A stretch of 64,000 nucleotides of DNA, taken from positions 29,916 through 93,915 of the forward strand of contig QPGO01000244.1 of assembly GCA_008632985.1 (NCBI GenBank), in the 5' to 3' direction. Both the position numbers and the translations under genes were made by a program. How positions within the stretch are numbered: position 1 is the first letter of the stretch; the number at the start of each line of letters is the position of its first letter. A model generated the notes under the pieces. The model was not told where the DNA came from, did not search any database, and was given only the letters and a program-made list of their open reading frames with translations. Of the stretch, positions 225-57,329 are shown piece by piece. This DNA comes from Psammoneis japonica (taxonomy: Eukaryota).

Positions 225-571
225 TGTGACAATGTTCACATTTGCATGTTTTTACAACAACATCGGACCTCCACGATTCCAACCAGAGATCCAAGATTCG
301 AACCCCGTGTGCGATGCTCAGTCTGAATCCCGCGGAAGCCGAGTCACGAATGCGATGTTTGTTCCTGGCTTCGCGCTTGTTCAACTTCGCGTTTCCTTTA
401 GATGGCAGCTGCATCTGCTCACAAAAACTGCTCATGATCTTTCTGGTGCACTGATTGTCACCTCTCTGCTTTTGGTTCAACAAAGTTTGCCGATTGATTG
501 TTGTGTCGCAATCACAGCTTTCAATCACTGAAAGTGCAGACGAATCTTAGAATTCCGACTGCTTTCCCACA
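225..571 (+). repeat. 5' LTR of element 1 (347 bp)
   Basis: Direct repeat of 6429-6776. Confidence 0.97.
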
Positions 572-645
572 CGCTTCCTCTGCGAAATCTGCAAGTTAAG
601 TCAATCGATCTTAAGCTCTCGATTCCACTTTACTCTGCTGTCACT

Positions 646-2140
646 GTGGTCACGCAGACACGAACCACGGCTGCTCTGGCTGCCTCTGTTGCAGCTCCCG
701 CTGCTGCACCCGCTGCAGCTCCTGCCACTGCTGCTGCTCCGGCAACAGCACCTGCTCCTGCAGCCGCTCCAGTTGCTCCTGCACCTCCCCCAGTCGTTCC
801 TCCCGGTGTGCCTCCAGGAGGAGGTGGAGGAGGAGGCGGAGGTGGAGTCCCACCAGGTGGAGTCCCGCCAGGTGGACCACCATTGGCACCTGTGCCACCA
901 CTGCCGATCTTCGCGTTGACTCCAGGTCAACACCGTCCCAACAACTTCATCGACTGCGGCACATCGCAAGGCCTCAAGCTTTGGAACGCCGCTGCTGCAC
1001 CGCTGCCGCACGAGTTCAACGGCGATTCAGAAGGTCTCAAACGGTTTTGTGAGACACTCAGTCAACGAGCTGCCGAGGCAGGATGGAAAACAGGGGCAGG
1101 AGACATGCTTGCCATTCCCAACGCGAATGGAACTCCACGAGATCTCATCTCCGAGTGCGGACCACTCACTCTGCAGGATGCAAAGAACCCACGCGAACAC
1201 CTTCGCGAATCTGCCTGCGCGACAAGCACAGAACAATGTGCAGATGGCCGAGGCGATCTCTCAATCCCTTGCGGAGGAAGCAAGAGACAAGATGTTGGCT
1301 GAGATGGATTCCCATGCGATCAATGGAAATCAAATCGGCACACTGTTCTTCAAGCTGCTTGCGCAAAAGGCCATCGTTGACACACGCTCCACCACCAACT
1401 GCTTCCGCGAGAACTTGTCAAGCCTGGATGCCTGCATGGCGGCTGTCAGCTCGGACATCGAAGAGTTCAACAAGTGCGCCAAGCTCAACGTTGACGGACT
1501 CCAAGCTAGAGGAGAGCAGTGCGACGACCTTGTCATGAATCCATTCAAAGGATGCGCCGCAGCTGCTGACGAAGCATTCGTCAAGCACATCATGTTGCAC
1601 AAGGACAGGCACGACGACGGTGAGGAATTCACACCGACGCAAATCATGACGTTGGCACTGAACAAATGTGCTGACCTCAAGCGCGAGAAGAAGTGGGGAG
1701 CACTGTCACCGGCTGAAGAGCAAATCGTCGCGCTCACAGCCAAGGTAGACTCCATCAAGGATCAGAACCTTCAGCTGTCTAAAGCTTTGAAGGCCAAGGC
1801 TGGTTCAATCAAGGAAAGAAGCACACGGTCAAGGAAGACCAAGACCACTCCACGTCAGAGACAGAAAGCGGACGAAGCCTGGAAGAAAGTCCCGCCTGAG
1901 GAGGACGCTCCTAAGAAGACAGTGAACGGTCATCAGCACTGTCACAAGCGCGTCAACAATCGCGACTGTCACTGGTGCCCATGTCACACTGCTTGGGTCA
2001 TACACTTGCCTGATGATCCGGGCAACCAAGGCTGTAGACTCCGCAAGCAACAGTCTGCTCCATCCACAGACACGTCGGACAAGAAAGTCTCCTTCGCAAG
2101 TGCTGTCTCCACCATCCTAAACGAAGTGGATCAAGAGTGA
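646..2140 (+). pseudogene. gag of element 1 (one frameshift near 1185; start reads GTG)
   Basis: Ala/Pro/Gly-rich N-terminus, FALTPG..IDC..QGLKLW motif and C-terminal HWCPCH..W..H....C knuckle; contains no Tyr. Confidence 0.8.
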
Positions 2141-5100
2141 CTGCTCTGCAGGTTCACTCTGACACTGCTGCTGTCCTTGCAGATGGCCGTCACTGTGTCA
2201 GTGCTCCTGACAGCGGTCGCTGGCGTCATGAAATGTGCAGCACCGATCTGGATCATGCTGCCATTCATGATGCTGTCCCTTCCTTCAGAAAAGTGTAAGC
2301 GCCTGTCACATGCCGCAATGACGCTGGGTGAGTGGGTCATCTCACATGTCCTGGCTGAACCAGGCACAAGACGAGTTAAGACTTGCCAGCGACGGCCAAC
2401 GACGAGGTGCTGCGCACGGCATCATACGTCGACGAGGCCAGGTCACCGCTCCAGAGTGGCCACCAAAAAGGCTCGCTATGTCATTACGCGATGCAAGACG
2501 GTTAGAGCGTACAACTCAACCACACCATGCCGTCCCGAGCGAACGGAGCCCACTTACGATTCGGACTCATTCGTAATCGGTGTCGACTCACATTCTTCCT
2601 GCACCATGTCCAACAACGAGGCACACTTCATTGGTCCTCTTCGCAAATCCAACAAAGTGGTGCTCGGTGTCAAGGGCTACTTGCGTGCTAAGGGAGAAGG
2701 AACAGTGCAGTGGGCAATTGAGGACGACATGGGACGAGTGCACAGCATCAAAATTCGAGACGCGCTACTCGTACCGGACTTACCTCATTGTCTTCTCTGC
2801 CCGCAGCAATGGAGCCAACAAGCTAATGACCACACGCCAGAGCCTCACGGAACCGTATCTTGGACTGGGGACGATGGACTATTACTGATGTGGGACCAGC
2901 GCAAGTACCATCGCCTGATTCCATGGTCCGCCAACTCTAATGTCGCCAAGATGCGCTCCGCACCCGGTTCCAACAAATGCCGGACCTTTGCAGCCACTGT
3001 CGAAGAACAAACCGACATCGAAACTATCGAGCACGTGGCCCATCAAGCTCACATCATACCACCAGACGACGAGAGTATTGCGAATGATGACGAGGCTGCA
3101 ATTGATACAGACGTCTTCAGCAGTCCATCCGAGACACGTCCTTCCGAGACGCAAGACGCACGCAACACTACTGATGAGGATGCTCCTGTCTTATTTGAGC
3201 CAACAGACGGAGCAAGTCGTTCAGACTCAGACGAGGAAAACCTAAGGGATTTCACGACACCGGAGGTACAGCAGGACTTACCGGAACCCATCAACATCAT
3301 ACCAAATGCCACAGATGACCAGGGTGAACTATTGCGTTGGCATTGCCGCCTGGGCCACATGTCATTCAAAATGATAAAGCTATTGGCCGCCCTAGGCATT
3401 CTACCGAAACGCCTTACAAAGGTACACAACCCAAAATGTGCCGGCTGCCTATACGGTGCCATGACGAAACGACCATGGCGCTCCAAGTCCAAGCGGAACC
3501 GACGAATCCACTTGGCAACTTCGCCTGGAGAAGCCGTATCCGTCGACCAGCTCGAGAGTCCTACTCCTGGATTGATCCCACAGCTCAAAGGGAGACCTGC
3601 CAAACAAAGGTATCGAGCAGCGACAATTTTTGTTGATCATTTCAGCGGATTGGGATACACACATTTGCAGAAAGGACTTACCTCAGTCGAGACGCTCGAA
3701 GCCAAGCACGCTTTCGAGGCATTCGCACGCCGGATGCACGTCCGTATTCAACACTACCACGCCGACAATGGAAGATTTGCTGACAATGCTTTCATACAAG
3801 ACGTCAAGAAGCAACAGCAAACAATATCCTATTGTGGGGTCAACGCCCACTTCCAAAACGGCATCGCGGAGAAAAGAATAAGGGACCTCCAAGAGCAATC
3901 TCGGAAGCAACTCCTACATGCAAAAGTGAGATGGCCAACGGCTATTGAGTTGAACTTATGGCCAAGCGCTCTCAGGAACTCAAACGAGATCAAGAATCAC
4001 TTACCGAATCACGAGGACGGCTCTTCTCCGCTGGAACGTTTCTCGTCCGTCAAGGTCCAGCCTAATCTCAAACAACACCATACCTTCGGCTGTCCCGTCT
4101 ACGCCTTGCACAACCGGTTGCAGGGAGGAGGTAGGCTGCCTAAGTGGGACCCAAGGGCAAGGTTAGGAATCAATTTGGGACCATCAACAAGACACGCAGG
4201 TTCAGTTACCTTGGTTTTGAATTTGCAGACCGGACTCGTATCGCCGCAATTTCACGTACAATTTGACGACTTCTTTGAGACCGTTCGTCCATCTGCTGGG
4301 AATCCTCCTACATTCTCACAATGGCAAGGCATTACAGGTTTCAGACAACTCAAGACAAGGAGTACTTTCAACATCTTTGGGAAATCAAGTGATGTACCGG
4401 TTGAGGGATCAGTCCCTACCACAACGGAACCACCTGAGCCGAATTCGGATGTCCCGTCTCAGCTGCTGCATCCTACTGATACGTCTACCACTGATGACTC
4501 ATTTGATAATGCCCAACCGGATGATGAAATGCTATACACGCCTCCAGATGATTCTGACGCACCATCTGAGCCACAGCGCACTATGGGTCAACCCAGTACC
4601 AGCAGGTCCGGCCGACAACGACGCCCGACCGAAAGGATGCGCGAGAGTCAACTACAAAGGGCTCAAGGCATTGTCTCCTACCATGCAGAGGCAGAGGCAT
4701 ATTATGATGCGATGCACGAGGATGATTACAAACTGCAGGACGACATGGACTCACCTATCTCTTTTCTGGCCAGCTCGGACCCCGACACCATGTACTTTGA
4801 TCAGGCTATGCGTGAACCTGACAGAGACGAATTTATCAAGGCCTGTGTTAAGGAGGTCAATGATCATATTGAAAGGAAACATTGGATACTCATTCCAAGA
4901 GAGGACGTACCTGACGATGTTGATGTTCTCCCTTCGGTATGGTCTATGAAGCGCAAAAGAGATATTAAGACCCAAGCCGTCTACAAATGGAAGTCCCGAC
5001 TTAATGTGCACGGCGGAAAGCAAGAGTATGCTGTCAACTACTTCCAGACCTACTCTGCCGTGGTCTTCTGGTTCACTGTCCGGCTCCTATTGATCATTGC

Positions 5101-6385
5101 CATTCTTAAGAAGTGGCATACACGCCAAGTCGACTTCGTTCTGGCGTATCCGCATGCCGATATCGAATATGATATGTACATGGAGTTACCTGCAGGAATT
5201 GAAACAAAATGTGGCAATGGTAAGACTCATGTTCTGAAGTTGCTCAAGAACTTATATGGACAAAAGCAAGCAGGGAGAGTGTGGCAAGAACACTTACGTG
5301 ATGGATTGTTAAGGATTGGTTTCGTACAATCGGCGGTTGATGAGTGCCTGTATTTTCGTGGCAATGTCATTTTCATTCATTATGTCGATGACGGTATCTT
5401 TGCATCCCCTGACAAGTCTGCTATTGACAAGGCGATACAGGATATCAGAGATGAGAATTTTGATATTGATGATCAAGGCACTCTGGACGACTATCTCGGT
5501 GTCAACGTCGAGACACTACCAGACGGCAGAATGAAACTTACCCAACCTCACCTTATCAATCAGATACTGGAGATGGCCAATATTCCAAAGAGACTACCAG
5601 ATAAGTCTACTCCTGCTCCTTCCTCCAAGATCCTCCACAGGCATATGAGTAAGCCTGCTTTCCAAGAGAGCTTTCATTACCGATCCATCATCGGCAAGCT
5701 CAATTTTCTGGAGAAGAGCACTCGACCGGATATCGCTTACGCGGTGCACCAAGTCGCACGCTTTTCTTCCGATCCCAAGGTTTCTCACGGTGAAGCCGTA
5801 CTATGGCTCTGTAAGTACCTAAGGTCAACCAGAACTGAAGGTATTATACTACAGCCCTCAACGGACAAGTCCCTTGAAGTTCACGCCGACGCGGACTTTG
5901 TGGGCAATTGGAATAAGCTGACTGCACCCAATGACGTCGGCACTTCCAAATCTCGAACTGGGTTTGTCATCACCTATGCAGGATGTCCGATTGTCTGGAC
6001 GTCCAAGCTACAGACTCAGATCGCGCTCAGCACTACTGAAGCTGAATTTATCGCTCTTTCGGAAAGTCTTCGAAGCGCCATCCCAATTATGAACCTCATT
6101 CAAGAATTTATGGATTACGGTCATAATGTCCCTTCCAAGACACCAGTCGTACATTGTAAGGCTTTTGAAGACAATTCTGGAGCATTGGAGATCGCGAGAT
6201 TGCCTAAGATGCGTCCTCGGACAAAACACTTCAACCTCACTCTCCACCACTTTAAAGACCATGTTCGCAAAGGTCTCATATCAATCCTACCAATTGATAC
6301 GGCGGATCAGATTGCAGACATTTTCACCAAACCTCTACCACAGAATCTCTTCGTTAAACACAGGAAATCGCTCCTTAAGTGGTAA
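2141..6385 (+). CDS. pol: pol polyprotein of element 1 (protease, integrase, RT, RNase H), open frame
   Basis: GVDSHSS protease-like motif, WHxRLGH...CAGC, integrase VDHFS/ADNG/NGIAE, RT YVDD, RNase H DADF...STTEAE...EDN...ADIFTKPL. Confidence 0.95.
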   Translation: MLCRFTLTLLLSLQMAVTVSVLLTAVAGVMKCAAPIWIMLPFMMLSLPSEKCKRLSHAAMTLGEWVISHVLAEPGTRRVKTCQRRPTTRCCARHHTSTRPGHRSRVATKKARYVITRCKTVRAYNSTTPCRPERTEPTYDSDSFVIGVDSHSSCTMSNNEAHFIGPLRKSNKVVLGVKGYLRAKGEGTVQWAIEDDMGRVHSIKIRDALLVPDLPHCLLCPQQWSQQANDHTPEPHGTVSWTGDDGLLLMWDQRKYHRLIPWSANSNVAKMRSAPGSNKCRTFAATVEEQTDIETIEHVAHQAHIIPPDDESIANDDEAAIDTDVFSSPSETRPSETQDARNTTDEDAPVLFEPTDGASRSDSDEENLRDFTTPEVQQDLPEPINIIPNATDDQGELLRWHCRLGHMSFKMIKLLAALGILPKRLTKVHNPKCAGCLYGAMTKRPWRSKSKRNRRIHLATSPGEAVSVDQLESPTPGLIPQLKGRPAKQRYRAATIFVDHFSGLGYTHLQKGLTSVETLEAKHAFEAFARRMHVRIQHYHADNGRFADNAFIQDVKKQQQTISYCGVNAHFQNGIAEKRIRDLQEQSRKQLLHAKVRWPTAIELNLWPSALRNSNEIKNHLPNHEDGSSPLERFSSVKVQPNLKQHHTFGCPVYALHNRLQGGGRLPKWDPRARLGINLGPSTRHAGSVTLVLNLQTGLVSPQFHVQFDDFFETVRPSAGNPPTFSQWQGITGFRQLKTRSTFNIFGKSSDVPVEGSVPTTTEPPEPNSDVPSQLLHPTDTSTTDDSFDNAQPDDEMLYTPPDDSDAPSEPQRTMGQPSTSRSGRQRRPTERMRESQLQRAQGIVSYHAEAEAYYDAMHEDDYKLQDDMDSPISFLASSDPDTMYFDQAMREPDRDEFIKACVKEVNDHIERKHWILIPREDVPDDVDVLPSVWSMKRKRDIKTQAVYKWKSRLNVHGGKQEYAVNYFQTYSAVVFWFTVRLLLIIAILKKWHTRQVDFVLAYPHADIEYDMYMELPAGIETKCGNGKTHVLKLLKNLYGQKQAGRVWQEHLRDGLLRIGFVQSAVDECLYFRGNVIFIHYVDDGIFASPDKSAIDKAIQDIRDENFDIDDQGTLDDYLGVNVETLPDGRMKLTQPHLINQILEMANIPKRLPDKSTPAPSSKILHRHMSKPAFQESFHYRSIIGKLNFLEKSTRPDIAYAVHQVARFSSDPKVSHGEAVLWLCKYLRSTRTEGIILQPSTDKSLEVHADADFVGNWNKLTAPNDVGTSKSRTGFVITYAGCPIVWTSKLQTQIALSTTEAEFIALSESLRSAIPIMNLIQEFMDYGHNVPSKTPVVHCKAFEDNSGALEIARLPKMRPRTKHFNLTLHHFKDHVRKGLISILPIDTADQIADIFTKPLPQNLFVKHRKSLLKW

Positions 6386-6428
6386 GACGTTTTCGAGTCA
6401 TCATTCCACCCGACATTGTTGAAGGGAG

Positions 6429-6776
6429 TGTGACAATATTCATATTTGCATGTTTTTACAACAACATCGGACCTCCACGATTCCAATCAGAGATCCAAGA
6501 TTCGAACCCCGTGTGCGATGCTCAGTCTCGAATCCCGCGGAAGCCGAGTCACGAATGCGATGTTTGTTCCTAGCTTCGCGCTTGTTTAACTTCGCGTTTC
6601 CTTTAGATGGCAGCTGCATCTGCTCATAAAAACTGCTCATAATCTTTCTAACGTACTGATTATCACCTCTCTACTTTTGGTTCAATAAAGTTTACCGATT
6701 GATTGTTGTGTCGCAATCACAGCTTTTAATCGCTGAAAGTGCAGACGAATCTTAGAATTCTGGCTACTTTCCCACA
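6429..6776 (+). repeat. 3' LTR of element 1 (348 bp)
   Basis: Direct repeat of 225-571, followed by the TSD. Confidence 0.97.
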
Positions 6777-7854
6777 TCTCTACCTACATGACTGTAGTGT
6801 GAATGGCCAGTGTTCGGCCCTCTTTTGGAAAAAGTCGCCCTACGATCCACCTCAAGACCAGCACTTTCGCATGCCATCCGTCGTTGGCAGCCATGATCTT
6901 TTTCAACGTCTGCCCAAGTCTTCCCATGCCAACACATGGCCATCGTCATTTGTTGGTCGAAAGGGTGCCAATTCCAAACTTCACATTGATTCTGCCGCGA
7001 GCTCCTTTTGGATGTACCTCATTTCGGGACGAAAGCGCTGGGTCCTCTACGACCAAGCCGAACGGCCCTTTCTCTATGAGCACATTCAAACAAATGCCTT
7101 TGTTGCCGATGTGCTCGCACTGAACAGCACATCTAATGCGGAGCACCAGTCCAAGATTTATGACTATTTCGATGCCACCTTCCCGTTGATTCGTCGTACA
7201 CAAGGCAAAGCCTATGAGATCGTTCAAGAAGCGGGACAGTTGATTTACATTCCACCCAATTCTCCTCATGCTGTGTGAGCAGCCCTTTTGTTCTGCAGCT
7301 GCATCTTGGAAAGCCTTCTGCAAGGCTGATCCACAGGCATCCGTCACAAACAAGACTCGCTCAACCTTTCCATTGCCCCTTTTTCGTTCTTTTCGTTTCG
7401 TTCAGGGAAAACCTTGACGACGTGGTTGGAGTTGCCTTCAACAGCATGCCTCGAGCCGGTGTTGTGCAACACATTCATGAAGAAATTCATCATGAGCGGC
7501 GTTGTGATGATGTCGAATTGTCACTTCGTTATTTGAAGGAAAACAAAAAGAAGAACGGCTTTAAGCCTGTCGAATCGGCAGATCCATTGCGCACCACTCT
7601 GGGTGAATTCACGGCTCAACACCAATGAGGAGGACATGTGTCGGCTTGCAGACAACAGAACAGCATTCATAATTCTAAATTTACTTTGCCACATCCGGAA
7701 TGTTGTCTCTCATTTTGAACTAAAAACAGAGTTAAAGAGCCCATTGAGAAGAAGTGGGAACAGCAGCAGGAGGCACAGAGGAAGCTGCAGAGGCGGAGGA
7801 GCAGAAGGGACGCATGACGAAGTGTGTGGGGCGACGAGCAGAAGGGATGGGAGA

Positions 7855-8103
7855 NNNNNNNNNNNNNNNNNNNNNNNNNNNNNNNNNNNNNNNNNNNNNN
7901 NNNNNNNNNNNNNNNNNNNNNNNNNNNNNNNNNNNNNNNNNNNNNNNNNNNNNNNNNNNNNNNNNNNNNNNNNNNNNNNNNNNNNNNNNNNNNNNNNNNN
8001 NNNNNNNNNNNNNNNNNNNNNNNNNNNNNNNNNNNNNNNNNNNNNNNNNNNNNNNNNNNNNNNNNNNNNNNNNNNNNNNNNNNNNNNNNNNNNNNNNNNN
8101 NNN
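7855..8103. other. Assembly gap (N run)
   Basis: Run of n. Confidence 1.
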
Positions 8104-8299
8104 AGCAGAGGAAGAGGACCAAAGGGGTCAGGCTGGGAGCAAACAGAGGAGAGCAAAGAGGAAGCGATGGCAAAAGAAGCCGAGAGTGCCGAGGTGATCA
8201 TCAGCAAAACAAAGGAGAAAGATGCCATCATTGTTGAGCAATGCAACAATGAGGGAGCTGTCAGATGAAGGAGTGGAAGGTTCAAGAAACTTTGATCTC

Positions 8300-9800
8300 A
8301 GGCTCAAGTGGTGTGCCTCAGTTCCAAACAGCAGGGGAAGAGGGAACATCAGGCAGGCCAGAAGGAGGGCGAGAGGGAACTTGGGGGGGGGGCGATGACA
8401 ATGGTGTTGTGGTGATGGCAGGAGGGAGTGGAAAGGGAAGAAGGAGAGGGCATGGAGATGCCAACATTGGCGGGGTGGGGCGGAGGAGTGGGTGGCGGGT
8501 GGAAGGAGATTTGAAAGGGTCAGCATGAATGTCACTCTTGGAGGAGTGGCAAAGTTTTGCAAGGGGCCCCAAGGTGTGTTGAGATGCAACAAAGACTGTG
8601 TCACAAAGACCATTGGAGAGCTTGGACCAGTGGCAGCCCTGCTGGCAGGAGAAGGCATGGTCACCACAGGCATGACTGCAGGTGCAGAGCACACTGACAA
8701 GGAAGGGGGGAAGGGCAGGGAGGCAGTGCTTGCACTGGGTGATGACAGCACAGGCATCAGAGGCAAGGCAAGAGCACTGAAAATGGTGAGAGAAGGAGTG
8801 AAGAGGGAGACCAGTCAGTGGAGAAAGGAGAGAATGCAAGGAGAGACTTGCACACTGGGAGGAGCATTGGTGGAGGTGTGCTTCTGACAACCATGATGGA
8901 AATGGCACACCAGGCCAGGGATGACAGCAGATTTGACTGGAGTGGCCAAGGAAGAGCTGGAAGAAGAAGAGTTGGAGGTCAGGATGGAGACAAAGTGACA
9001 AAATGGCATGCAGAGGTGAGGGGTGGAGCAGGGATTGTTCCAGGAGGACAGGGAGAGCTTGGGGCTGCGTGTGTGTGTGGGGGGGGGGGGGGGGGCAATG
9101 GCATCCCCACAAGGCAGCTGAGTGCCATGAGCAGCAAAGTGGAAGGAGCAAAGAAGAGCAATGAGGAAGGAGGGGATGGCAATGGCTGGTGGGTTGTGGA
9201 GACCAAAAGCTGGGAGGAAGGCAATGGCAAGGAAGTGCGGGGGTGGAGCTGGGGGGTTGGCTTGTGGGAGGTGACAAAGTGGAGGAAGCAGTGAGCAGCA
9301 GCAAGGAGGGTGCCTTCAAAGGAGGGGGTCCAGGAAAGGATCCGGGGGCTTGTCAGGGTTGAAGTTGTGGCAGAAGTTGGCACCAAGGAGATGAGGAGAG
9401 GAAGGAACAAAGCAGTGTTGCTTCAAGAGCTGGGCTTGAGTCTGCTTGTCATTGGGAGGTGGGCAAGGAGTTTGTCAACCTTGTCAGAGAGGGTGGAGGA
9501 CACATCAGAGAGAAAGAAGTTGGCAAAGTCTTTGGAAGAGCCAAGGGGCCAGCCAAAGAAGCAGATGCCAAAGGTGAGCTCAGGGTTGTGAGAGGGATCA
9601 TTGGCAGGGTTGATGAGAGAGGAGGAGCAGCTCAAGGAGAGCTGGCTTGAGAAGGAGGAAGAGCAGGGGTGGGGCTGACCACCAGGTTGACCCCAGTGAT
9701 TGAAGCAAGGATCTTGGTTTTGCTCAGGTTGAGCTTGATGCCATTGGGAGCACCAAGGGCAGCAAAGCACTCAAGAAACCACAGGATGGTGGAGTGAAGC
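8300..9800 (-). mobile_element. Decayed non-LTR retrotransposon relic, CRE/RLE-endonuclease type (3' part)
   Basis: Minus-strand fragments in the expected order: GIKLNLSKTKIL (~9710-9740), GICFFGWPLGSSKDF (~9520-9570), zinc knuckle CTCSHACGDHAFSC (~8640-8690) and an LRP..ANVG-like remnant (~8460-8490); many frameshifts. Confidence 0.65.
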
Positions 9801-9879
9801 AGGAACACATGTGCATCGTCAATGCAGGAGAGCCAACAGAGAGGTCAGGGAGCAGCCGGGGGGGTGTCAAGGCAGCTTC

Positions 9880-11960
9880 TCCTGGTTCAAAGAGCAAAGG
9901 ACAATGGTCCCATGTGTGTCTGCATGTTGGCAATTTCACGTGGTCAACCCCCACACATTTCTCCAAGCTCCAGCTCCATGGCTCTGGCGCACTTCCATTT
10001 TGAGAGCTGCGCGCATCTCTCTCAAGTGCCTGTCATTCCAGACCACAGAGTGCCCAATTTTCAAGTGCCAAAAACAACAGCAAGGTGTGCAAGATCCTCT
10101 CTGTTGACAAAGTGTTTGTGCAACAATGCTGCAGCCCAACTCACAAGCATGCCCTGCAGCAGAGGGTGATCACAAATGGGGCCTTCATGCTCAGGCCAAC
10201 TTCTTGGCACTCTCATTCACCCATCATGCTGTGTCTAACCTTCTGGCATTTGCAGTCACAACCACTGAGTGAAATCTTGCTCCTCACTTGCTCATTGCTT
10301 TTTTCTTGCCTCTCAGCAGCACAGGCCAGGTTGAGACAGCCACTGTGAGTGTGACACAGTGCTGAAGCCAAACACCCTGTGCTGGGTGGCAACAACCCAA
10401 ATCCATCAAAGCATGTGATGTTTGGTGTGCTGTCAGAGCCATTGCCAAACAACAATGACAACACACCTGTTGATCCAGAGTTTCCAAAATGGCAATTGTG
10501 TGTTGTGTGTGTTGAGTGCATGTAAAATTTGCAATCTCAGCTTGCATGCGTGACCTCACTCATGCCAAATTTCACTGGCCTGACTTTGGAGAAAACAGCA
10601 TGCATTGTGCAATTGTCATTGAGAAGAACAAAACAAGAAATGGGAAAATGGGTGAAAGTGCCATTGACATGTCATGCCACAAAGTGGGACACCTCAATCA
10701 CATTGTCAAACCCTTTGCCACACTCAAGCATTGCCCATGCTGCAACATTTGATGAGAGCTGATGTGAGACACTCATGGCAGTTGCTGCAGCCAGGAGAGC
10801 TGATGACAGCCCACCCCAGGCTCGCCCCCTGGCATGACTTTAACAAAGATCTGCAGGACAGTTGTGGTGAGCCCCATCATCAGTGCATCACTGTGAGTGA
10901 TGGCTGGCATTGTGCACATTGTTCCAATGAAAATTTGGATGTTGAACTCAACATTTGCTCCATGTGCAGCCAGATGCGTCATGGCAAATGGGTGTGAATG
11001 ACATTGATGGGGAGGGGTTTGGAATTTGAGTGTTTTTTTTAGAGTTCAAACAGTGAAGCAGCTGCTGAAGTGTGGACTGTCAAAAGATCTCATCACCATG
11101 CAGCTCTTCCAATCATCCTGTGGGTGGTTCACCTGTTGTGGAATCTGTGGTTTGTGTCAACAACATTTTCAGTGGCCGATGGCAAGTTGTGGATGTTGAC
11201 ATTTCAAGTGAAATGTGAGCTTTTGAAGGAAGCCTGAGTGTTTTGATGCACACTCCTCTTGATTGATGTCTTCTGTGTTGCCATCTTCACATTCAATGCA
11301 AAACATGGGTGATCCAGTTGCTGCATTCTTTGTCATGCATTTGACAATGCCGTTGCAAGAACGCCCTTTAAAGTGCTCAGAAAATTGGATGTTCACTGTG
11401 GGTTTCCAACACAGGTCTTTGGCTGGCATCTTGCCATTTCCATTCTCAGAATCATCAGGACTGGAGAGCCCGTGCTCACTCTGGCTTGGACAAAGAGGAG
11501 GAGAAGGAAATTTCACCATTTTTTCCCAACTCTCAAGTGATCCACTCAGCAATGCTTCCAATGGCATGTCCCTTGCATGCCCTTTGACAGATCAGGGTTT
11601 CCATTCTTGGAATTGTCAGGACTGGAGAGCACACCCTCACTCTGGCTTGGAGGAGGAGAAGGTGAAAGAAAAGCCACCATTTTCTCTGACTCAGACAATC
11701 CATCCAGCAATGCTTGTTCTGATGGCATGCCCCTTGCATGCTTTGGCAGATCATGACCTCCATTCTTGAAGTCATCAGGGCCAGAAAGTCCATTCTCACT
11801 CTGGCTTGGAGGGGGAGAAGGCAAAAGAAAAGCCTCCGTTTTCTCTAACTCAGGCAATCCATTCAGCAATGCCCCTGATGACATTCCCCTGCACACTTTG
11901 ATGGATCAGGGTTTCTGTTCTCAGAATCGTTGGGGCTGGAAAGTCCATTCTCACTCTCAC
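9880..11960. repeat. ~2 kb dispersed repeat, copy A (inverted copy at ~55540-57326; short partial copy at ~16607-16760)
   Basis: For example GGTCCCATGTGTGTCTGCATGTTGGCAA at ~9906 is the reverse complement of ~57268-57295; similarity is colinear through the block. Confidence 0.9.
11441..11960. repeat. Tandem repeat, ~160-bp unit, ~3.3 copies
   Basis: Units start at ~11441, 11602, 11761 and 11916 and share CTCACTCTGGCTTGGA...CAGCAATGC...GATCA. Confidence 0.85.
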
Positions 11961-12138
11961 CCACCTCTGTTTAAACTGCATCATTTGCTTCATTTGCACA
12001 CACAACCTGCTCTGCACCCGCCACTCTTCTCATTGCCAGCTGCAACAAAGAGTGGCCAGGCAAGGGAAATGAGGAAACCAAAGATGACACCTGAGGCTCA
12101 CAAGCAAGCAGAGAGTCTGTTGCATCAAGTGACAATGG

Positions 12139-15100
12139 TGACAGGATTTGAACAGGATTTGGGTGCGCGCAAAATGTCGCGCACTATTTAGTTTGCCGCG
12201 CACAGTTTTGTGTGCTTTAGTTCCACGCGTTCGCACACGATGCAGTTTGCTTTCGAGCCACAAGGCTCACAAGAATGATGACAGTAGCCCGATTGTGCTG
12301 ACTTGCATGTCTTTCGGCTCCTGCAACGGTCTCTGAGTGGAGACTCATCTGCCATTTAGACAGCAGCAAGGAGTCATTGTTTGAATTCTTGCCATTTGCC
12401 TTCAATTTCTGTCAGATGGGCAGCATTGCTGGCAACGACGTTCGCGTCATTGCATGCACCTCTCGCCAAGTCGACGTTCAGGGCATTGACGACCATCAAT
12501 TGGTGGACATCCCCATTGTCACCGCTGGCACCGTCATTGAGACACAGCATGGTCCCGTTGTTGCCATCCTCCATCAGCACGCATGCACGGGAAAGGGCAA
12601 GACCATTCATTCCTGTGGCCAGCTCGAATGGCACAAACACGATGTCAATGATCGCTCTGTCAAGGTGCCCAACGGCTTGCAGCGTGTTGCCACACCTGAT
12701 GGCTGTGTCATCCCAATTGACATCAAGGGTGGCTTGCCTTGTGTTGCCATGCGGCCCCACACTGACGACGAATGGGACACCCTGCCACATGTCATCCTCA
12801 CCGGAGATGACACATGGGACCCTTCCGTCCTCGATCACTCTATCACTGACAACAACCAGTGGTGCGACGTGATCTCGGACCCACAGGACGATCCCACTGC
12901 CAACCTGTTTGATGAGTGTGGCAACTGCCGTCACCATGTCGTTGTCAACAAGGCTGTCATGTCTGCCTCCTTGTCTGCCGATCACGCGTCCGCCCTCGAT
13001 GACCACCTCATTCCGAATGAAGACGTCTTCTACGAGTGTCATCTACACGCGATTGACCCCAAGGATGGTGACGTTCCGCCTCCGGAGCGCAATGTGCAGC
13101 CCACGGACCCCCCCTGCGAGTCTCTTTGGCCCCACTTTGGTTTCCAACCCACCGACACGGTTCGTCGTACTTTCGACTGCACCACGCAATGCGCCTGCAT
13201 GCCCGCCGGCACGCACCTTAAGAAGGCCTACAAATCGCCCAACCCCGCCCTTAATGTGCACCGCCGCAACGAGCCCATCGCCACTGACACCGTTTGTGCC
13301 GACACCCCGGCCGTTGACTCTGGTTGCACCAGCGCCCAACTGTTTGTTGGTGCCGAGTCTACCATCACTGATGTCTGCGGCACCAAAACGGACAAAGAGT
13401 TTGTCAACACACTTGAGGATCAGATCCGTGAGCGTGGTGCTCCATCCAAACTCATTGGCGACCGTGCTCAAGTTGAGATCAGCAACAAGGTGCTCGGGAT
13501 TCTATGAGCCCTCTTTGTCTCCAGCTGGCAAAGCGAGCCTCACCAGCAACACCAAAACTTTGCCGAACGTCGACACCAGACTGTGAAGTGCATGGCGAAC
13601 ACCGTCATGGACCGTTTCGGTTCACCTGCCCACACATGGCCACTGGCGCTCATGTGCATGTGCTTCATGCTCAACCACACAGCATCCCCACGTCTCCACT
13701 GGTGCACGCCCCTCGAGACTCTCACTGGCTCCACCCCGGACATCAGCCCATTGCTTCGCTTTCACTGGTGGGAACCCATGTGCTTCCACCTCGATGACTC
13801 CGATTGGCCGTCTGAATCCCATGAGTTGCGTGGACACTTTGTTGGGATTGCTGAGCACGTCGGCCACCAGATGATCTTTAAGATTCTTTCTGACGACACT
13901 CAGAAGATCCTCTGCCTGTCCAATGTACGTTCCGCTGCTGCCGATCCTTCCGTTCGAAACCTGCGTCTTGATCCTCCTGATGGGGAGCCACCTGAACCCA
14001 TCATCAAATCTCGCCATGACGACAACCCCGTCGATTCACCTGATGGGGAGATCAGGACACCCAAGGTGCCAGTCTTTGATCCGCAAGACATCATCGGATG
14101 CACCTTCCTCATGCAGCCACAAGAGGACGGACAACGCCACAGAGCTCGCATCATCAAGGCCGTCGAAGATCACGACTGGAAAGTGAACGGCAACCCTGAG
14201 CTCACTAAGTTCATCTGCTCTGTCAACAACGATGAATACGAGGAAGTCCTGGCCTGCAATGACATCATGAATCACATTGAGCAAGAAGACGAAGACACTG
14301 CTGTTTGGAAATTTTGACGCATTGTGTCACACGAAGGACCTCTGAAGCCTCATGACCCAACCTGGAAAGGCTCAAGCTACAACATTGTGCTTGAATGGGA
14401 AAGTGGGGAGATCACGTCCGAGCCTCTTGCCATCATCGCCAAGGATGGCCCTGTCACCTGCGCCATCTGTGCACAAGAGAACGGACTTCTCGACACTGAT
14501 GGCTGGAAGCGGTTCCGCACCATCGCGAGGCGCCAGAAGAAGCTGTTCCGCATGGCCAACCAAGCCAAGCTTCGCTCCTTCCACACTGCACCTCGCTGCA
14601 AGTGCAGACACGAAGTTCCCCAGAACTGCAAACATGCCATGTCACTAGACGAACGCAATGGCAACCGCAAATGGGGAGACGCAACCAATCTCGAGATGGA
14701 CCAACTCGATGAATACGAAGTCTTTCATGACTGCGGGCCCTCCGAGTCTTCCACTCCTCCTGCGGGACACAAGAAGATCCGAGTGCACCCAGTGCACGAC
14801 GTGAAACACGACGGCCGCCACAAGGCACGACTCACAGCCGATGGACACCTCACGGACGTGCCCATCGACAGTGTCTGCTCCGGAGCAGTCTCCCTTCATG
14901 GCCTTCGGCTGATGATTTTCCTGGCCGAACTCAACGAGTTGGAGACATGGGCCACCGACATTGGCAATGCCTGCCTTGAAGCCACCACCAAGGAGAAGCT
15001 GTACATTGCAGCTGGACCCGAATTTGGCAAACTCGAAAGCCACATTCTTGTCATCCACAAGGCCCTGCATGGACTGCGCAGCTCCGGCCTCCGCTGGCAC

Positions 15101-16601
15101 GAGTGCTTCGCTGACTGCCTGTGAGCTGAAGGTTTCTTCCCCTGCCACGCGGAACCTGACATTTGGATGCGCAGGAACGGCGACCACTGCGAACATGTTG
15201 CCGTTTGTGTGGATGACCTCCCCATTGCCATGAAGGACCCTCAATCTTTCGTCGACACTCTCACGGAAAAGCACAAGTTCAAGCTCAAGGGCACGGGACC
15301 GATTGAGTTCCATCTAGGCTGCGACTTCTCCTGGGATCCTGACGGCACCTTGTGCCTGTCTCCGCGCAAGTGCATCGAATGCATGGTCGACAGCTGCACA
15401 TGACTGTTTGGGGAGAAACCTGCCACCAATGCCCTGTCCCCTCTGGAGAAGGGTGACCACCCCGAACTGGACACTTCTGAACTGCTGGGGCCCGATGGCA
15501 TTCAACAGTTCCAGTCTCTTGTTGGTTCCCTCCAATGGGCAGTGTCCCTTGGTCGAATTGACATTGCCACGGCCGTCATGTCACTCTCTAGCTTCCGAGC
15601 TGCGCCCCGTCAAGGCCACTTGGATCGTGCCAAACGTGTCTGTGGGCACCTCTCCAAGATGCGACACGGCTCTCTCCACGTTCGCACGGAAGAGCCCGAC
15701 CATTCGGATCTCCCTGCACCGGCCTGTGAATGGATGCATTCCGTGTGCGGCAAAGCAGAGGAGATGATCCCGAAGGATGCTCCACCGCCCCTTGGCAAGT
15801 TTGTCACTGCCACCCACTACGTCGATGCAAACTTGCATCATTGCATGCTCACCGGACGCTCTGTCATGGGAATGCTCCACTTCCTCAACAAATTCCCGGC
15901 TGATTGGTTCTCTAAGAAGCAAGCCACCGTAGAGACTGCAACCTGTGGGTCTGAATTTGTTGCCGCAAGGACTTGTGTTGAGCAGATTGTCGACCTGCGC
16001 ATCACCCTGCACTGCCTCGGAGTCCCGATCCGTGACATTGGTTGCATGTTCGGTGACAACAAGTCGGTTGTAGACAGTGCCACCATCCCGCACTCCAAGT
16101 TACACAAGCGACACACTGCGCCATTGTTCCACCATGTGTGTGAGGCAATTGCCTCTGGTTTCCTTGAGCTCCACTTCATCGAAGGCTCCCGCAACCCTGC
16201 TGACATTCTCAGCAAGCATTGGGGTTGCTCCCAAGTCTGGGACCTTCTCCGCCCCCTCATGTTCTGGAACTTCATTCCATCCGAAGTCGAATCTGTTTCT
16301 GTGACTCCTCAAGCAAACTGGGGAGTGACAGGATTTGAACAAGATTCAGGTGCGCGCAAAATGTCGCGCGCTGTTTAGTTTGCCGTGCACAGTTTTGTGT
16401 GCTTTAGTTCCGCACGTTCGCATGCGATGCAGTTTGCTTTCGAGCCACAAAGCTCACAAGAACAATGACAGCAGCCCGATCACACTGACTTGCACGTCTT
16501 TCGGCTCCTGCAACGGTCTCTGAGCGGAGACTCATCTGCCATTTAGACAGCAGCAAGGAGTTGTTGTTTGAGTTCTTGCCATTTGCCTTCAATTTCTGTC
16601 A
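12139..16601 (+). mobile_element. Ty1/copia (CoDi-like) element 2: gag-deleted, degenerate pol
   Basis: 276-bp LTRs at 12139-12414 and 16326-16601; TSD AATGG at 12134-12138 and 16602-16606; pol motifs IAGNDVRVI, IATDTV, DVKHDGRHKARL, VCVDD, VDANL, GSEF, NPADILSKHW with internal stops. Confidence 0.95.
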
Positions 16602-18069
16602 AATGGTGTGACACAGGGATGAAGCCAAACATCCTGTGCTTGGTGGCAACAACCCAAATCCATCAACATCATTTTGAGTGCAAAAGCCAAACATCCTGTG
16701 CTTGGTGGCAACAACCCAAATCCATCAATGCATGGTGTGCTGTCAGAGCCATCACCAAATGGTGGCTCTCTCCAAGTCTGTGAACACTGCAGCTTTTCCT
16801 TGAGTCTGCCTCCTGGTGTGAGCAAGGGCATGGGTGCATCTTGCTAAGATGGCACATCCCTGACATTCAGGTGCAGTTTCTGCACAGAGCCTGGCTCCAA
16901 TGCCTTGTTGTACAACCCTGTTGCTCATGCCATGGTGCCAATGATTCAAGCAGACAGTGCATTGCTGTCCATTGTCTTGGGTTGACAGACGCAGCGTGTG
17001 TGTGTGTTGCTCACTGAACAGCTGCAGGAACATGAAAAGAAAAAAAAAGAGATGCAGATCTTTTGAAAAAGCAAAGTGTGAATCCAATGGAAATTTCTTT
17101 TGGGAGGAAGAAACAATGATGTGCTTGAAAATTTTGAAGCCACTTTTCTGAAAGAGAAAAAGAAAAGAGTGAAGCAAAGAGAGTGTGGCAATGAACCAGG
17201 AGTGTCATCAGGGCATTGTTGGTGTGACAGCATGCCAAAAGCAGCAGCAATGGGAAAGCAGCAGTGGCACAAATTGGGGCATTGTTGGAGTGACAGTGCA
17301 CAGCGTCAAGCACGGGAAAACAGCGGCGACGTGCGCACGCGCATCGCTGCACTCTCCACCATTGTGTGCTCTTGCACCACACAACAGAGGTCTCAGTGAC
17401 ACAGAATGGCAACCCTGTTTGTCACCTGGAAGCTTTTCATGCACAATTCGAGTTGCCACAGCTTCAGCCCTTTGTCTCAAAAAATCCAAAGGAGAGACCC
17501 TTTGCACACAGATGATTCGGCGCATCATGCTTTGCTCTTTGTGCTTCTCCACAGTGCAAAAAACCAAGTGTAGAGTTGTGGCTGGCACAACGTGACCCCT
17601 CCCAACAATGTCCCGAGCGCTGGTGTGACAACTTGCAGCACCTGCTAGCTAGAGTGGAGCTAGCTAGCTGCTAGAGTGGCAGCACCTGCCATTTTTGGCA
17701 ACAGCCTTTTTTGCAAAATGCGCGATCGACCCACTGAATGGGGGCGTCTTGCTGGCGACCGTAGTTGAAGATGGTGAAGCTTACGTCATAGAAACGCCAC
17801 CACACACTTTTTACTTATGAAACACCAAATGGCTTACTTAAGGACATGACATACGTCACCATCCACACTTTCGAACAGCACTCTCTAGGAGGGCCCTACT
17901 TTTCTACATACTGTACTGTAGTGACTGTCAATCACATACCGTACGGTACGACGATGATGTCACAGCACACAACGCAGATAGAACTCAATATCCCAAATCT
18001 GCCGCACATCATTATTCTGTCTTCTTTCCTTCTGGTTGAGAATGCGATGGTGTTGACCGATACTTCACC

Positions 18070-21000
18070 ATGAGCACCGACAGAGAAGAAGCATACGCTA
18101 ACCTTGAATTTGAGGACGCCAACATATCATGGTACGTCTTTAAAAAGGAGCGTTCATCAGTCAATTACTGTACGAAGAACGTTGACTTGCATGTGTGTCC
18201 AGAGACACGACTGACGGAGAATTCTTTTACTTCATGCATCATCCCTTTTTTTAATCGCAGGCAGCCAATTTATGTTTCAATGGTTCTGACTTCGGTTCAG
18301 TGTGTATTTTTATTAATTGTCTTTGAATGTGCTAGACGGAATAAATTTGTAGAGTCGGTTTACGACAGGCGGAGAGGAGTCTATGAAAAACGAATGCCGC
18401 CCCCTCTTCGAAAGCGCAGCGGCTGCTTGAACGGTTGGCTGGCGTTTGAATGGTGGAAGTTTCGTGTGGCGGATAAGGAATACCGACAATTGAGTATCGA
18501 AGAGTATAATATCGAGAAAGAGCGGCGTCGAAAGGAGAACATCAACAAGAGCACTGACGAGCAGCGCCGAAACGATGACCTCTTGACAAAAGCCGAGAGA
18601 CAATGCTACCTGAAGTCGCCCTTTTACAACCGGTGTGAGGAAGAAGACGATGACTTATCAGCAATGGAAATGGATGAAAGAGACGATCGGAGCTTTAGCC
18701 CTGAAGGGGAAGTGCTTCAGGAAGGGAAAATGAATATCACAGAAGAAACATTTCAACTTGATGCGTTGAAGAACGTCTCGATGACTCACGACGAGACAGA
18801 TTCAAACTCCAAAGAAATGGAGAATCCATCAGAGACACCCATGTGCCTCAAACAATCATTGAATTTAGAGAGTGAAATGTGTGAATACGAGAGCGGTGTT
18901 CCAGCCAAGGGCAAAATGCAGCAAACCGCGAGGCAAAGCACGAGTTCCCTTACGTCGTTTCGCAAATCCTCCGTGACGAAGCCTTCATTGCGACGAAATA
19001 TCAGTTTATCATCGATTGCAAAATCTGACAGTCCCTCTCCAAAAGGTGGAATTGTTCGTCGAATCGCCTCGTCGTTACGGAGTCCGCGAAGCCAAGCAGG
19101 AGACATTACAGTGGGAAGCGAAGAAGCGGAACGACTTGCTAGACTTCGATTTTCAGAGCCAGAAGAAAGCGAGAATGCGAGAAAACGAAACTTATTGTCA
19201 ATTTCCTCTACAATTTCAAAATTTGTGAGGACGCGAATCCTTCTTATACAAGATAAACCTGCTCAAAGGGGTCCGTCGGAGGACTACGTGGCTCATCACG
19301 ATGTAGCGCGGCGGTCACTGACGGAAGAAGATCAAGAAGTTTTGCGTTGTGTCGGTCTAGACGCTTTCATGACACTGCGGTTTCTGCTTTTTGGGTTTCA
19401 TGTCTCGTTTTGGCCAATGTGTCTAGCGCTTCCCCTTCTACTTCCCACTTACATGACAGCCAATGGCCCAGCTATCAACGGCTTTTATAGCACGACCATT
19501 ATTGCGGTGGAAAAAGGGAGTTGGAGGTTCTGGATTGTGATGCTTTTGCTTTGTTTGCAGTTTCTCTTCATCCTTCGGCGAATATGGACTGAATGGGAGC
19601 TATTCTTACCGTTACGCTACGATTTTTTAGAGCATGGAGACTTCACGAAAGAGAAATACAAGGAACAATACCGGGAAACGGCTATAGTCGAGTATGTCCC
19701 GTCATCGCAGAGACACGATAAGTATCTCTACTCGTTCTTTGACACGGTCTTTCCGGGTCAGATTAAACACGCAGAGGTGCTGTTGAACATTGAGCACTTG
19801 AGAAATCTGCGACGCGAACGGCTAGAACATATCGTGGCTTACGAGAACATCTACGCCAAGATGGTCCACAAACGAGCAGATTTTCTTCGGCGTTTGGTAC
19901 ATTCCTTCGAGAAAGAAGGTAGCACAAATCGATGCTGCCTCGCCACAAGGAGACCTCGTGAACCAAAGGAACCAACCGTTGTGATTCAACGACATTTGAG
20001 GGGCAAGATCCCTTTAGATGCTTCAGAAAATTTCCCTGTGACCTGTCCGGCTCTAACTTATCACCATGAGTACGTCGTGAATTGATCGCAGCAAGCGTGC
20101 ATGGACTCATCTCCGGCAGCTTTCTTACCTCTGTTTCCTGTCTTTTGTATGCATCACAGCATGATTCAGAAGTTAAACAACGAGATCGACACCGAATATA
20201 TTCGTCTAGCACAGGAGCAGCGCCGAGCAATTCCTAAAACAAAGAAATCGAGCTTGACGAAAAGGCTTGGTTTGACCCATCTCATAACTTCAGAAACCGG
20301 TCACGTGCATTCAAGCACGGCTTTCGTAGAGTTCCGATCTCTTGCCGCCAAACAACACGCAATCCAGTGCAATATTGCGGGCACGAAGAAGTGCATGGTC
20401 GTGTCACCTGTACCGGAAGTCCGAGACCTGATCTGGGGTAATGAACATGTTTCGAGGTAACTTCATTTATGTCGTTTTTGTTGCGCTTTTCCTTGTGAAT
20501 AATCAAAATCTCATTATTCCAATTGTTGTTTTTGTCTCTCTAATCACAGATCTCTGATTGTTACACGCATGATGTGGATTAACGTGCTGCTGGCTGGCTG
20601 CTTAGTGCTTTGGTCCCTTTTGGTGTCACTTATTCGCAGCTACGACAAGTACAGTGACTGGTTCGAAGGGGATCTCGCCCAGACCCCGACTGCCGTAGCC
20701 CTCTTGAATGTGTACTTACCTGCGCTTGTCGTAGAAGGTCTCGTTAGAATTATACCATTCTTCATCAAGCTTCTTTGCAAGTGGATTCGATTCAAGTCGG
20801 CCAGTGAGACTGACCATTACATATTACGTTGGTACTTTGCGTACCGCCTCTTCACTTTCATCTTTGTGATTGAGGGGGATCACCTGATCGATCAGAGTGA
20901 CAAATTAATTGATGACCCAGTTGGATTCTTGTTGGAACTGAGTCGGAAGGTTGCCGCCAACTCGCAGTTCTTTATTTGCTACGTTATTATTACGGTCACT

Positions 21001-22022
21001 CTGCTATTGGTGCGACTGTCGCAAATTCATAACGTTGTTGAGTTTTTCTACCTTCACAACATTGTGCGAGAAGAAGCACTTTCTCAGCGACGCCTTGACA
21101 AGCTAAGGACCAACTTGAAGGTAAGACCGCAAGCTCATGGTCGACCTTACGGCGCACGCTTGTGTTCTGACGCATCTTCTCCGCCCTTTGATATGTACAG
21201 ATTTTTCACAAGGATGAGTTCATCCCACTCTTCATATTCGTCTTCATGGTGGGAGCCTTGTACGGAGTGATTGCGCCGCTCAGTGGCGTCTTTGTGTCGG
21301 GCTTCTTTCTTGTCGCCTACAAAGTTGTGAGGTTCATGTCACTGTTCATTTACGGCAACAACTATGAGGGTGGCGGCTTTCTATTCTACACGCTCTCGAC
21401 AATTCTATTCTGTGTTTTATACTTGATTATTATTGTGTTGGCCTGCTATCTGTTCTCCCACCAGTCGGAGGCCGCCGCAGGAATATTCTTGTCGCTTCTG
21501 ATCGTCACTTTCTTTGTTCACTACAGAGTTCACTTGACGTTTGTAGAACCGTCAAAGACGCTCTCTTTAGCCAAGGCGCGAGAATTTGAGCAAAAACACG
21601 ACAACCGAAGTCCTCATCAACGCAAGCTAGAAGCATTTCTGGCGTCCAAACTGGCATTGGACGAGGAAGAGGAACGATTAGATGCTGGTGCTGTTGAAGA
21701 CCATGAGGAACATCTACATCTCTTACTCTCTCCATCAGATGCTTCCTCTGCTGAGTTCAGTGTTCGAGCAGTCATGCCATCCGATGAAGTGGGTCTCCCA
21801 GACAGTGAGAGGCTCAATAAGGCGATCGATCGCTTCCAACGGCGTTATGAAGAGAACAATGATGACTGCCTGTCCGAAATCACCGACAGCGATGTGGATT
21901 TGTCCGGTCCACCGAGCGACTTCTTCATATATCGCCAGCCGTCCTTGAACCGCGCAACCTGGGAAGTTTCCCCCCGGCCGTATCGGGAATCTGGTCTGAG
22001 AGAGGCCAGCATGAAATGGTGA
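18070..22022 (+). CDS. OSCA/TMEM63 (CSC1/ERD4-like) calcium-permeable mechanosensitive channel, copy A
   Basis: GLDAFMTLRFL, TAFVEF and PEVRDLIWGN motifs plus multiple TM segments; GT-AG introns at 18132-18260, 20070-20159, 20457-20549 and 21121-21200. Confidence 0.88.
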
Positions 22023-22443
22023 TACCTAGGATTCTGCATATTCTAACCTTCAGTTTTCGATTGATGTCAGGCTTCATTTGTTGACAATATTCAGTGTTGC
22101 TAGGTGCCTTACATCGCTGCATTTACTCTAGTACTATAGAGCAAACGGCGCTTGTACAGACAGTGGCCCTCACGATCCTCAATTCTGACAACCTCAATTA
22201 CGCATTCGAAAGTGAAGCTGGGCATAACACCGGTAAAGATTCATTCATTCCACCCGACGGCGGCGAGCTGGGCGCGGCCAAAGCAAGACTGAACATCATT
22301 GTGACGTCACGATCAGCGAATCAAACTTCTTGGTTTTCGGCGGGAGTTCTTCGGAATCTTCAGGAATCTTTCAATGTCCCGATGCGAAGATCCAGCGTCC
22401 ACGTCCAGGAAACCACATCACAGCGAGAAATAATGACTTCGCC

Positions 22444-26304: not shown

Positions 26305-26798
26305 GAAAATCGAAAATCCAATTGCGATAGGCACGGTACAAGAGTCGGGTTTTATTTTGTTGAACACCACGTCTTCCACCTTGGCGACGCCATTTAAGAA
26401 ACGGTTGGAACCGAAGAAGAGGTTGTTTTGACTGCGTGGCGCTTTCCATTGGTACGGCAGCCTTGGACCACGGGTGGGCTTTTGCATCGACAAATCCATG
26501 GTCGAATTGGGAATTTTGGATTTACCTCAAAAGGAATCGCACGACATCTTGCTTGCTGTACCCGGTTTGCCGTTGACGTGTAATTCTCGAACGGTGACAG
26601 CAAAGGAGTAGATTTTATAACACAAGACCCAACTTTCAAAAATGGAGAATCAACTTCCAACAACGGAGTCCAGGATGAATCTCTCGTGGTGTCGGCAATT
26701 GTAAGGATTCTTGCGTCTCATCCAAGTTGTCGCTGTCGGCATGAACAAGAAATGCGTCATGTCCATCTACAGCAGCAACGTCATTCGGCGAGTCGACT

Positions 26799-57326: not shown

Positions 57327-57329
57327 TTT

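Follow-up and report, generated by a model that had tools for sequence, protein, structure and literature searches.

Repeat-induced point mutation (RIP) of ascomycetes is confined to repeats, where it changes C to T at CpA and creates TpA. In the accessible parts of a preprint on Bigelowiella natans, TpA hypermutation is described for integrated DNA from NCLDV (nucleocytoplasmic large DNA viruses) and from virophages, with A>G change measured de novo at TpA only and adenine deamination proposed as its origin (bioRxiv 10.64898/2026.01.13.699255). Neighbour preferences are given, again in the accessible portions of the sources, for several A-to-G enzymes: native TadA requires TACG within an RNA loop and leaves TAT unused (PMC5630033), ecTadA7.10 of the adenine base editors favours T on the 5' side and C on the 3' side (PMC8387386), ADAT2/3 of filamentous ascomycetes (Tad2-Tad3-Ame1) edits mRNA in hairpin loops with U at −1 and A or G at +1 (PMC11156358), and ADAR favours 5'-UAG (PMC10661471). 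Here we describe the erasure of TpA from transposons and old repeats in a 64,000-nt window of contig QPGO01000244.1 of Psammoneis japonica (the window is the whole stretch analysed, and all coordinates refer to it; Table 1), in which gene domains with an observed/expected (o/e) TA ratio of ~0.45–0.8 alternate with nearly TA-free blocks where CA/TG is in excess. We find that the altered A sits after T and favours a following pyrimidine, on both strands and after insertion of the element, which bears out the suggestion of an earlier note on this DNA that TAY is the preferred target, as the direction of the outcomes shows that the A converted to G precedes C or T.

The same note had named YTAR (Y, pyrimidine; R, purine) as the main context in which TA survives, and this holds: YTAR accounts for 28 of the 49 TA steps in 7700–17700, compared with 159 of 904 in the normal domains of the window (Fisher p = 2e-9). 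Within the saturated stretch of old repeats (7700–12137), the YTAR survivors lie at 7721, 7733, 10236, 10841, 11040, 11369, 11846 and 11972, and the single other survivor, at 10523, is GTAA; within element 2, an internally deleted copia retrotransposon, just 14 of 32 surviving TA are YTAR, vs 8/9 in the saturated stretch. The survivors quoted in the note are all present, with the TA of GTCTAAC at 10236, of CTTTAAA at 11369, of CTCTAAC at 11846 and of GTTTAAA at 11972, as are the three TTTAG retained in each long terminal repeat (LTR) of element 2. A further quoted example, the five CTAG sites of GCTAGCTAG, also exists (17646–17672) but lends little weight because it is positioned at the border of the depleted domain, where TA counts per 100 bp from 17301 on run 0, 0, 1, 5, 3, 7, 9; its survival is probably a boundary effect. 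Exactly on this border, at 17620–17690, lies a short CTAG-rich, near-palindromic tandem with CAGCACCTGC at both ends, possibly the terminus of some mobile element. A second assembly, of a public run, possibly of the same sample and thus a check on assembly only, matches 16699–18013 with one letter different and one gap; the TA-poor sequence is reproduced there and is therefore not an assembly slip.

The same preference is found in DNA outside the element families. We tiled the window, its contig neighbours and the flanks of the fetched loci, with the three element families excluded, into 462 tiles of 400 bp (238 depleted, 141 normal, and 83 between the cut-offs that were omitted), and find that YTAR makes up 166 of 299 surviving TA in depleted tiles vs 473 of 2508 in normal ones. 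Survival ratios run from 0.21 for YTAR through 0.06 for YTAY and 0.044 for RTAR to 0.013 for RTAY, which refutes the uniform depletion across NTAN contexts that the earlier note had named as its counter-case. What does not stand is YTAR as one resistant class, since enrichment of the whole conceals survival of 0.38 for TTAA, 0.20 for CTAA/TTAG and only 0.07 for CTAG; CTAG is barely resistant and survives less than GTAA/TTAC (0.08).

Survival alone cannot separate 5'-TAY from 5'-RTA on one strand; the outcomes, TG or CA, can. We scored them in family 1, the young, star-like family of element 1, whose copies range from almost unchanged to fully erased, with events counted per copy against lightly altered copies. 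At 260 TA sites in 18 copies, YTAY goes to TG 459 times and to CA 187 times, RTAR to TG 31 and to CA 82, while the symmetric contexts are nearly balanced (RTAY, 318 TG and 314 CA; YTAR, 62 and 74). When each site is counted once, TG prevails at 73 and CA at 14 of the 107 YTAY sites, and CA at 14 and TG at 7 of the 24 RTAR sites. Rates by context, which the earlier note had proposed to derive from transposon alignments, are available from three copia families, all favouring a pyrimidine at +1: the TG share is 0.71 (family 1), 0.71 and 0.67 (two family-2 sets, which overlap in sites and are partly dependent) and 0.63 (family 3) for YTAY, and 0.27, 0.35, 0.41 and 0.38, respectively, for RTAR. The agreement in direction across 45 pairs of copies is just 0.52–0.75, and the copies are independent; the excess of Y over R at +1 is present in all three reading frames.

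A competing-risk fit to these 260 sites, with an intensity per copy and segment, a site bootstrap and A as the reference base, extends the rule beyond the TA and its immediate neighbours. At +1 the weights are 3.71 for C (2.58–5.82), 3.52 for T (2.61–5.85) and 1.47 for G, so that a pyrimidine exceeds G ~2.4-fold and A ~3.5-fold; this is a preference and no strict requirement, as the note had also stated, and TTAA and CTAG sites are indeed altered in the 5' LTR of element 1. At +2 the weights are 1.68 (C), 1.65 (T) and 1.37 (G), at −2 they are 0.63 (C), 0.54 (G) and 0.63 (T), and at −3 they are 0.47 (C), 0.62 (G) and 0.31 (T; 0.21–0.42), with a strand ratio of 0.98 once context is accounted for. 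The fit is stable when sites adjoining another TA or a CG are dropped (171 sites left), and families 2 and 3 replicate the pyrimidine at +1, the low A at +2, A over T at −2 and the low T at −3 (0.25–0.39). The rule thus reaches beyond a tetramer: the change is promoted by A at −2 and hindered by T at −3 or by A at +2, the best context is approximately AATAY(C/T) and the worst is TTTAAA. The family-1 weights predict hexamer survival in out-of-family DNA with a Spearman coefficient of −0.69 (126/136 hexamers), compared with −0.49 for +1 alone, and survival falls from 0.22 to 0.007 across quintiles; TTTAAA occurs 15 times in depleted and 14 times in normal tiles, AATATC 0 and 32 times. These outer positions (−3, −2 and +2) were overlooked in the earlier note, yet they account for most of the survivors it quoted, such as TTTAAA, TCTAAC and TTTAG, in which a T at −3 or an A at +2 protects.

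The change is from A:T to G:C, post-insertion, strand-symmetric and ~40-fold stronger when T precedes than when A or C does. In family 1, A>G is found at 1573 of 8916 TA (17.6%), 89 of 12516 AA (0.7%), 116 of 14705 CA (0.8%) and 69 of 15118 GA, that is at 0.5–0.8% after A, C or G; in erased zones it reaches 44% per strand at TA, with 1.2% at AA, 1.0% at CA and at most 1.2% in other contexts. Adenines outside TA change at ~1/40 of the TA rate under the same +1 rule. Eight copies each hold one erased and one intact zone, and across these non-TA A>G rises at least about fivefold in the erased zone (+1C, 43/2120 vs 2/1492; +1T, 18/1768 vs 2/1972; +1A, 7/1935 vs 6/2073; +1G, 1/2427 vs 1/1851), CpG decay goes from 0.6% to 3.0%, and neither transversions at A (p = 0.39) nor C>T outside CpG (p = 0.77) change. 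The leak at non-TA adenines, following the same +1 rule, argues for a single agent whose preferences at −1 and at +1 are separate. This agent appears to act where CpG methylation is likely and is far faster than the decay of methyl-C. Both products are found (870 TG, 657 CA in family 1), and TA steps differ between the paired LTRs of the same insertion; since the pairs differ and both strands are equally affected, the substrate is chromosomal DNA after insertion and not RNA.

Opposite-strand lesions segregate at replication. Doubly changed TATA are found in excess on the same strand (TGTG or CACA), 151 of 226 vs 95.8 expected from the context model and 39 of 50 vs 28.4 in a site-preserving shuffle, and TATA with a single change is scarce (12 vs 20.6), which suggests that both lesions arise on one strand during a single encounter. 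A same-strand excess at 3–4 bp depends on the null (37 vs 27.4 and 36 vs 27.7 with one, 81 vs 80.9 with the other), and because the nulls disagree we claim short-range coupling for TATA only. Folding energy and local GC have no effect, nor has the distance to the nearest CpG (observed/expected 0.93–1.05).

We somewhat favour a deaminase-like enzyme that turns A into hypoxanthine at 5'-T[A]Y within silenced repeats. A transposon would insert and then become silenced, and its CpG-methylated chromatin would mark the target; the enzyme would reach the silenced DNA on both strands, and the damaged A would be copied as G. The lesion would lie on A, not on its partner T, and deamination to hypoxanthine would be its simplest form. 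Same-strand doubles would be paired lesions from a single encounter that precedes replication, and the survivors in saturated DNA would be poor substrates on both strands simultaneously. The wider proposal, that a natural DNA adenine editor of unrecognised kind defends the genome, advancing as a front through silenced transposons on both strands, independent of hairpins, reading ~six bases (A-A-T-[A]-Y-Y best, T-T-T-[A]-A-A worst) and striking two adenines two bases apart per encounter, is offered tentatively, as something short of an even bet. Such an editor would not simply be ADAT2 or TadA moonlighting, because the context fits none of the deaminase preferences compared.

A profile search of the genome (G000) gave 10 matches to PF00383 and 5 to PF14437, and seven of these loci were read; we take them to be dCMP deaminase, TadA-like, ADAT2-like, RibD-like and guanine-deaminase-like genes, the labels being partly motif-based. 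One locus is TadA-like (L143), and none of those read stands out. The locus L148:380-838 (G000:C151) holds a deaminase-like frame with a weak PF00383 match that is itself TA-poor (o/e 0.34) and looks as if struck by TA erasure. At L144:1-891 (G000:C79), a guanine-deaminase-like domain is fused to a DIOX_N 2-oxoglutarate dioxygenase domain; its nearest relatives of solved structure have free bases and small molecules as substrates, the ESM Atlas gave no usable match for it, and its predicted role is probably nucleobase metabolism.

Several other origins would leave A:T to G:C changes at TpA. An enzyme might instead modify the thymine of 5'-R-T-A-(T) within silenced DNA, oxidation being one example, so that it pairs with G. 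This is formally equivalent to every count given here when read from the other strand, and oxidised thymines do mispair with G; we know of no precedent for a TpA-specific T>C defence, which counts against it, and we consider it unlikely, though not negligible. A profile search of G000 for Tet_JBP (PF12851) found no match, but the control was also matchless, so this search is uninformative. An error-prone, iota-like polymerase that copies or repairs silenced repeats, with −1 as the primer end and +1 as the next template base, would insert G opposite template T; Y-family polymerases are present in G000 (five loci, 6 matches, subfamily not typed) and the TATA doubles are compatible with a short error-prone patch, yet the flat A transversions and non-CpG C>T between zones of the same copies, the near-100% saturation with one change type, and the lack of strand bias or of long same-strand runs make this origin distinctly doubtful. 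By analogy with RIP, which uses a methyltransferase-like protein, an adenine methyltransferase-like protein might mark or attack the TAY of repeats, with deamination of the marked base to follow. The domain-limited fronts and the coupling to CpG decay do resemble a chromatin-guided writer, but the irrelevance of the nearest-CpG distance (0.93–1.05) speaks against one, and we give this route little credence.

Two further explanations are harder still to reconcile with the data. Polymerase eta makes A>G at WA, that is at TA and AA, and TA counts as a WA hotspot for either strand according to the accessible part of one source (PMC7884765); AA is however no hotter than CA, the values for AA, CA and TA being 1.2%, 1.0% and 44% in erased zones and 0.7%, 0.8% and 17.6% overall, and because AA is not raised the WA signature is excluded and this polymerase is scarcely credible as the source. 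An absence of any preference, with survival explained by the initial composition, by selection on coding sequence, by common ancestry or by editing of element RNA before insertion, is also very improbable and is refuted by several results. Shared ancestry did blur the first tally of family 2, but events are scored per copy against lightly changed copies whose directions agree at only 0.52–0.75, the Y>R effect recurs in three frames, LTRs differ, both strands are affected, and the rule predicts survival outside the three families.

To return to adenine deamination, a number of observations weigh against it or against its details. Sequence cannot separate a lesion of A from one of the opposite-strand T, and no enzyme was found in the search of G000 for PF00383 and PF14437, the deaminase-like loci there resembling housekeeping genes. 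Single-strand deaminases often show strand coordination and hairpin effects; here strand coordination at ≥10 bp was not found (z of 1.3, −0.7 and −0.5; one of 17 copies with z 2.9), and the residual rate at 470 site-strands shows no correlation with stem score or unpairing. Across all 18 copies the other change types are ~twofold up in erased zones, the methylated state of the target is read solely from CpG decay, the outer weights are noisier and in family 3 those for C at −3 (1.92) and G at −2 (1.04) are unlike family 1, and the tally of all 28 family-2 copies is weaker (YTAY TG share 0.57, strand ratio 0.74). As for the known enzymes, to the extent that the accessible text of the sources describes them, ecTadA7.10 disfavours an upstream A (PMC8387386); the native TadA motif also differs, since T at +1 (3.52) is about equal to C (3.71) and there is no peak for G at +2 (1.37 vs 1.68 for C and 1.65 for T); and fungal ADAT2/3 takes a purine at +1 in an RNA substrate, against a pyrimidine in three families here.

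The copy sets were chosen as follows. For family 1, 18 of 30 loci were used; those omitted share the 3' flank of the window copy (L064, L067), are diverged (L081-L083, L085, L087-L089) or are short (L090-L092). For family 2, 23 of 28 aligned copies were used, L031, L033, L034, L044 and the window copy being more distant or intermediate, and L032 and L040 have no clean LTR pair; the tally over all 28 copies was dropped because shared ancestry and misassigned sites blur it, and young star-like sets were substituted. For family 3, 9 of 30 loci were used. Most full-length family-2 copies are ~7.1 kb, vs 4463 bp for element 2, which carries an RVT_2 match at 14318–15121 and is flanked by the target-site repeat AATGG (12134–12138 and 16602–16606). 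The course of erasure was followed over window 225–6776, L063-L086 and L123-L141. In family 1 it forms a front from the 5' end, as in L077, where it is 100% to ~3 kb and then 0%, and TA losses in this family number 81 in 5' LTRs vs 16 in 3' LTRs. Family 2 behaves oppositely, its 3' LTR losing TA first (125 vs 22 in the 5' LTR), so polarity is family-specific. Both L064 (G000:C444) and L067 (G000:C118) are ~100% identical to the 3' flank of element 1 in the window and to 9874–12100, but their 5' flanks differ from that of the window and their target-site repeats are unmatched; these mixed flanks reflect recombination between copies or assembly joins. Matching target-site repeats are also missing from L066 and L077.

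Elsewhere in the window, an old repeat occurs twice in inverted orientation (9874–11823 and 55638–57327, 75–90% alike), with TA and CG loss saturated. A tandem gene duplicate (18040–22022 and 22476–26304, ~73–77% identity) has normal TA in both copies, and old duplication alone is therefore no trigger of erasure. Cys/His-rich gene-like frames at 35420–37245 have a TA o/e of ~0.1 with CpG largely retained (0.64–0.84), a probable erased non-transposon gene beside element 3.

Table 1. Coordinates of the features of the window referred to in the text.
Feature	Position	Strand	Remarks
Element 1, young copia	225–6776	+	Erased in 5' part only; family 1, flank rule fitted here
TpA-erased domain	7700–17560		TA o/e 0.00–0.22 per kb; CpG also lost 8000–12000; 43 TA remain
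Saturated old-repeat stretch	7700–12137		9 TA survive, 8/9 YTAR
Element 2, copia LTR retrotransposon with internal deletion	12139–16601	+	4463 bp; family 2
Element 2 5' LTR	12139–12414	+	TTTAG at 12189, 12218, 12357; 23 differences to 3' LTR
Element 2 3' LTR	16326–16601	+	TTTAG at 16376, 16405, 16544
Five-CTAG cluster (GCTAGCTAG)	17646–17673		Right border of depleted domain
Gene domain, normal TA (o/e 0.48–0.63)	18000–27000		Part of control set
Element 3, LTR element with pol-like frame	37230–42866	+	Family 3, replication set

In the literature that our search covered, which leaves out most subscription papers, we found no paper besides the B. natans preprint on TpA loss in diatoms or on its flank rule, and chromosomal A-to-G hypermutation as genome defence is represented by that one preprint, whose accessible text identifies no enzyme. 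The six-base signature is a fingerprint for an enzyme hunt that makes candidates testable: a candidate should act far more after T than after A and C, and on these more than after G, should prefer a pyrimidine to G and G to A at +1, should be hindered by T at −3 and by A at +2, and should leave TATA doubles on the same strand. The signature argues against the contexts of polymerase eta, ADAR-like and fungal ADAT2/3-like enzymes, and permits asking whether one enzyme is common to the processes in Bigelowiella and in this diatom-like lineage; a natural DNA adenine deaminase, if this is what acts here, would be of interest to developers of base editors.

Compared with RIP, the process is likewise repeat-confined and consists of dinucleotide-specific transitions after insertion, but its chemistry is opposite, with TpA lost and C>T at CA found at only 47 of 14690 sites. 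The likenesses to the enzymes are partial, as far as their sources are accessible. ADAR and polymerase eta also make A->G after T/U, but TAG is a weak context here and not the best, and AA is not targeted; fungal ADAT2/3 shares the strong T/U at −1. With TadA and ecTadA7.10 the process shares A->G after T and a favoured following C; native TadA acts on a hairpin loop in RNA, whereas here hairpins are irrelevant and the substrate is chromosomal DNA, and the resemblance is an analogy only, as the earlier note had held, since TAT equals TAC, G at +2 has no peak and hairpins have no effect. The closest match, as far as the accessible text of the preprint goes, is B. natans, with which the window shares a change on both strands that turns TpA into TpG/CpA, is restricted to DNA of foreign or mobile origin and runs against the usual AT bias; here the change is a TpA-centred A:T->G:C on both strands that hits mobile DNA and spares genes. 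The main text of that preprint holds no flank analysis, making no mention of context, flank or trinucleotide; the change there is called TpA-only, whereas a leak of ~1/40 is found here at other adenines, and the ADAT2 candidate proposed there would be expected to favour a purine at +1 if fungal Tad2/3-like, against the pyrimidine found here. The present case also differs in lineage, which is diatom-like, and in its targets, which are LTR elements and neighbouring repeats, erased up to saturation.

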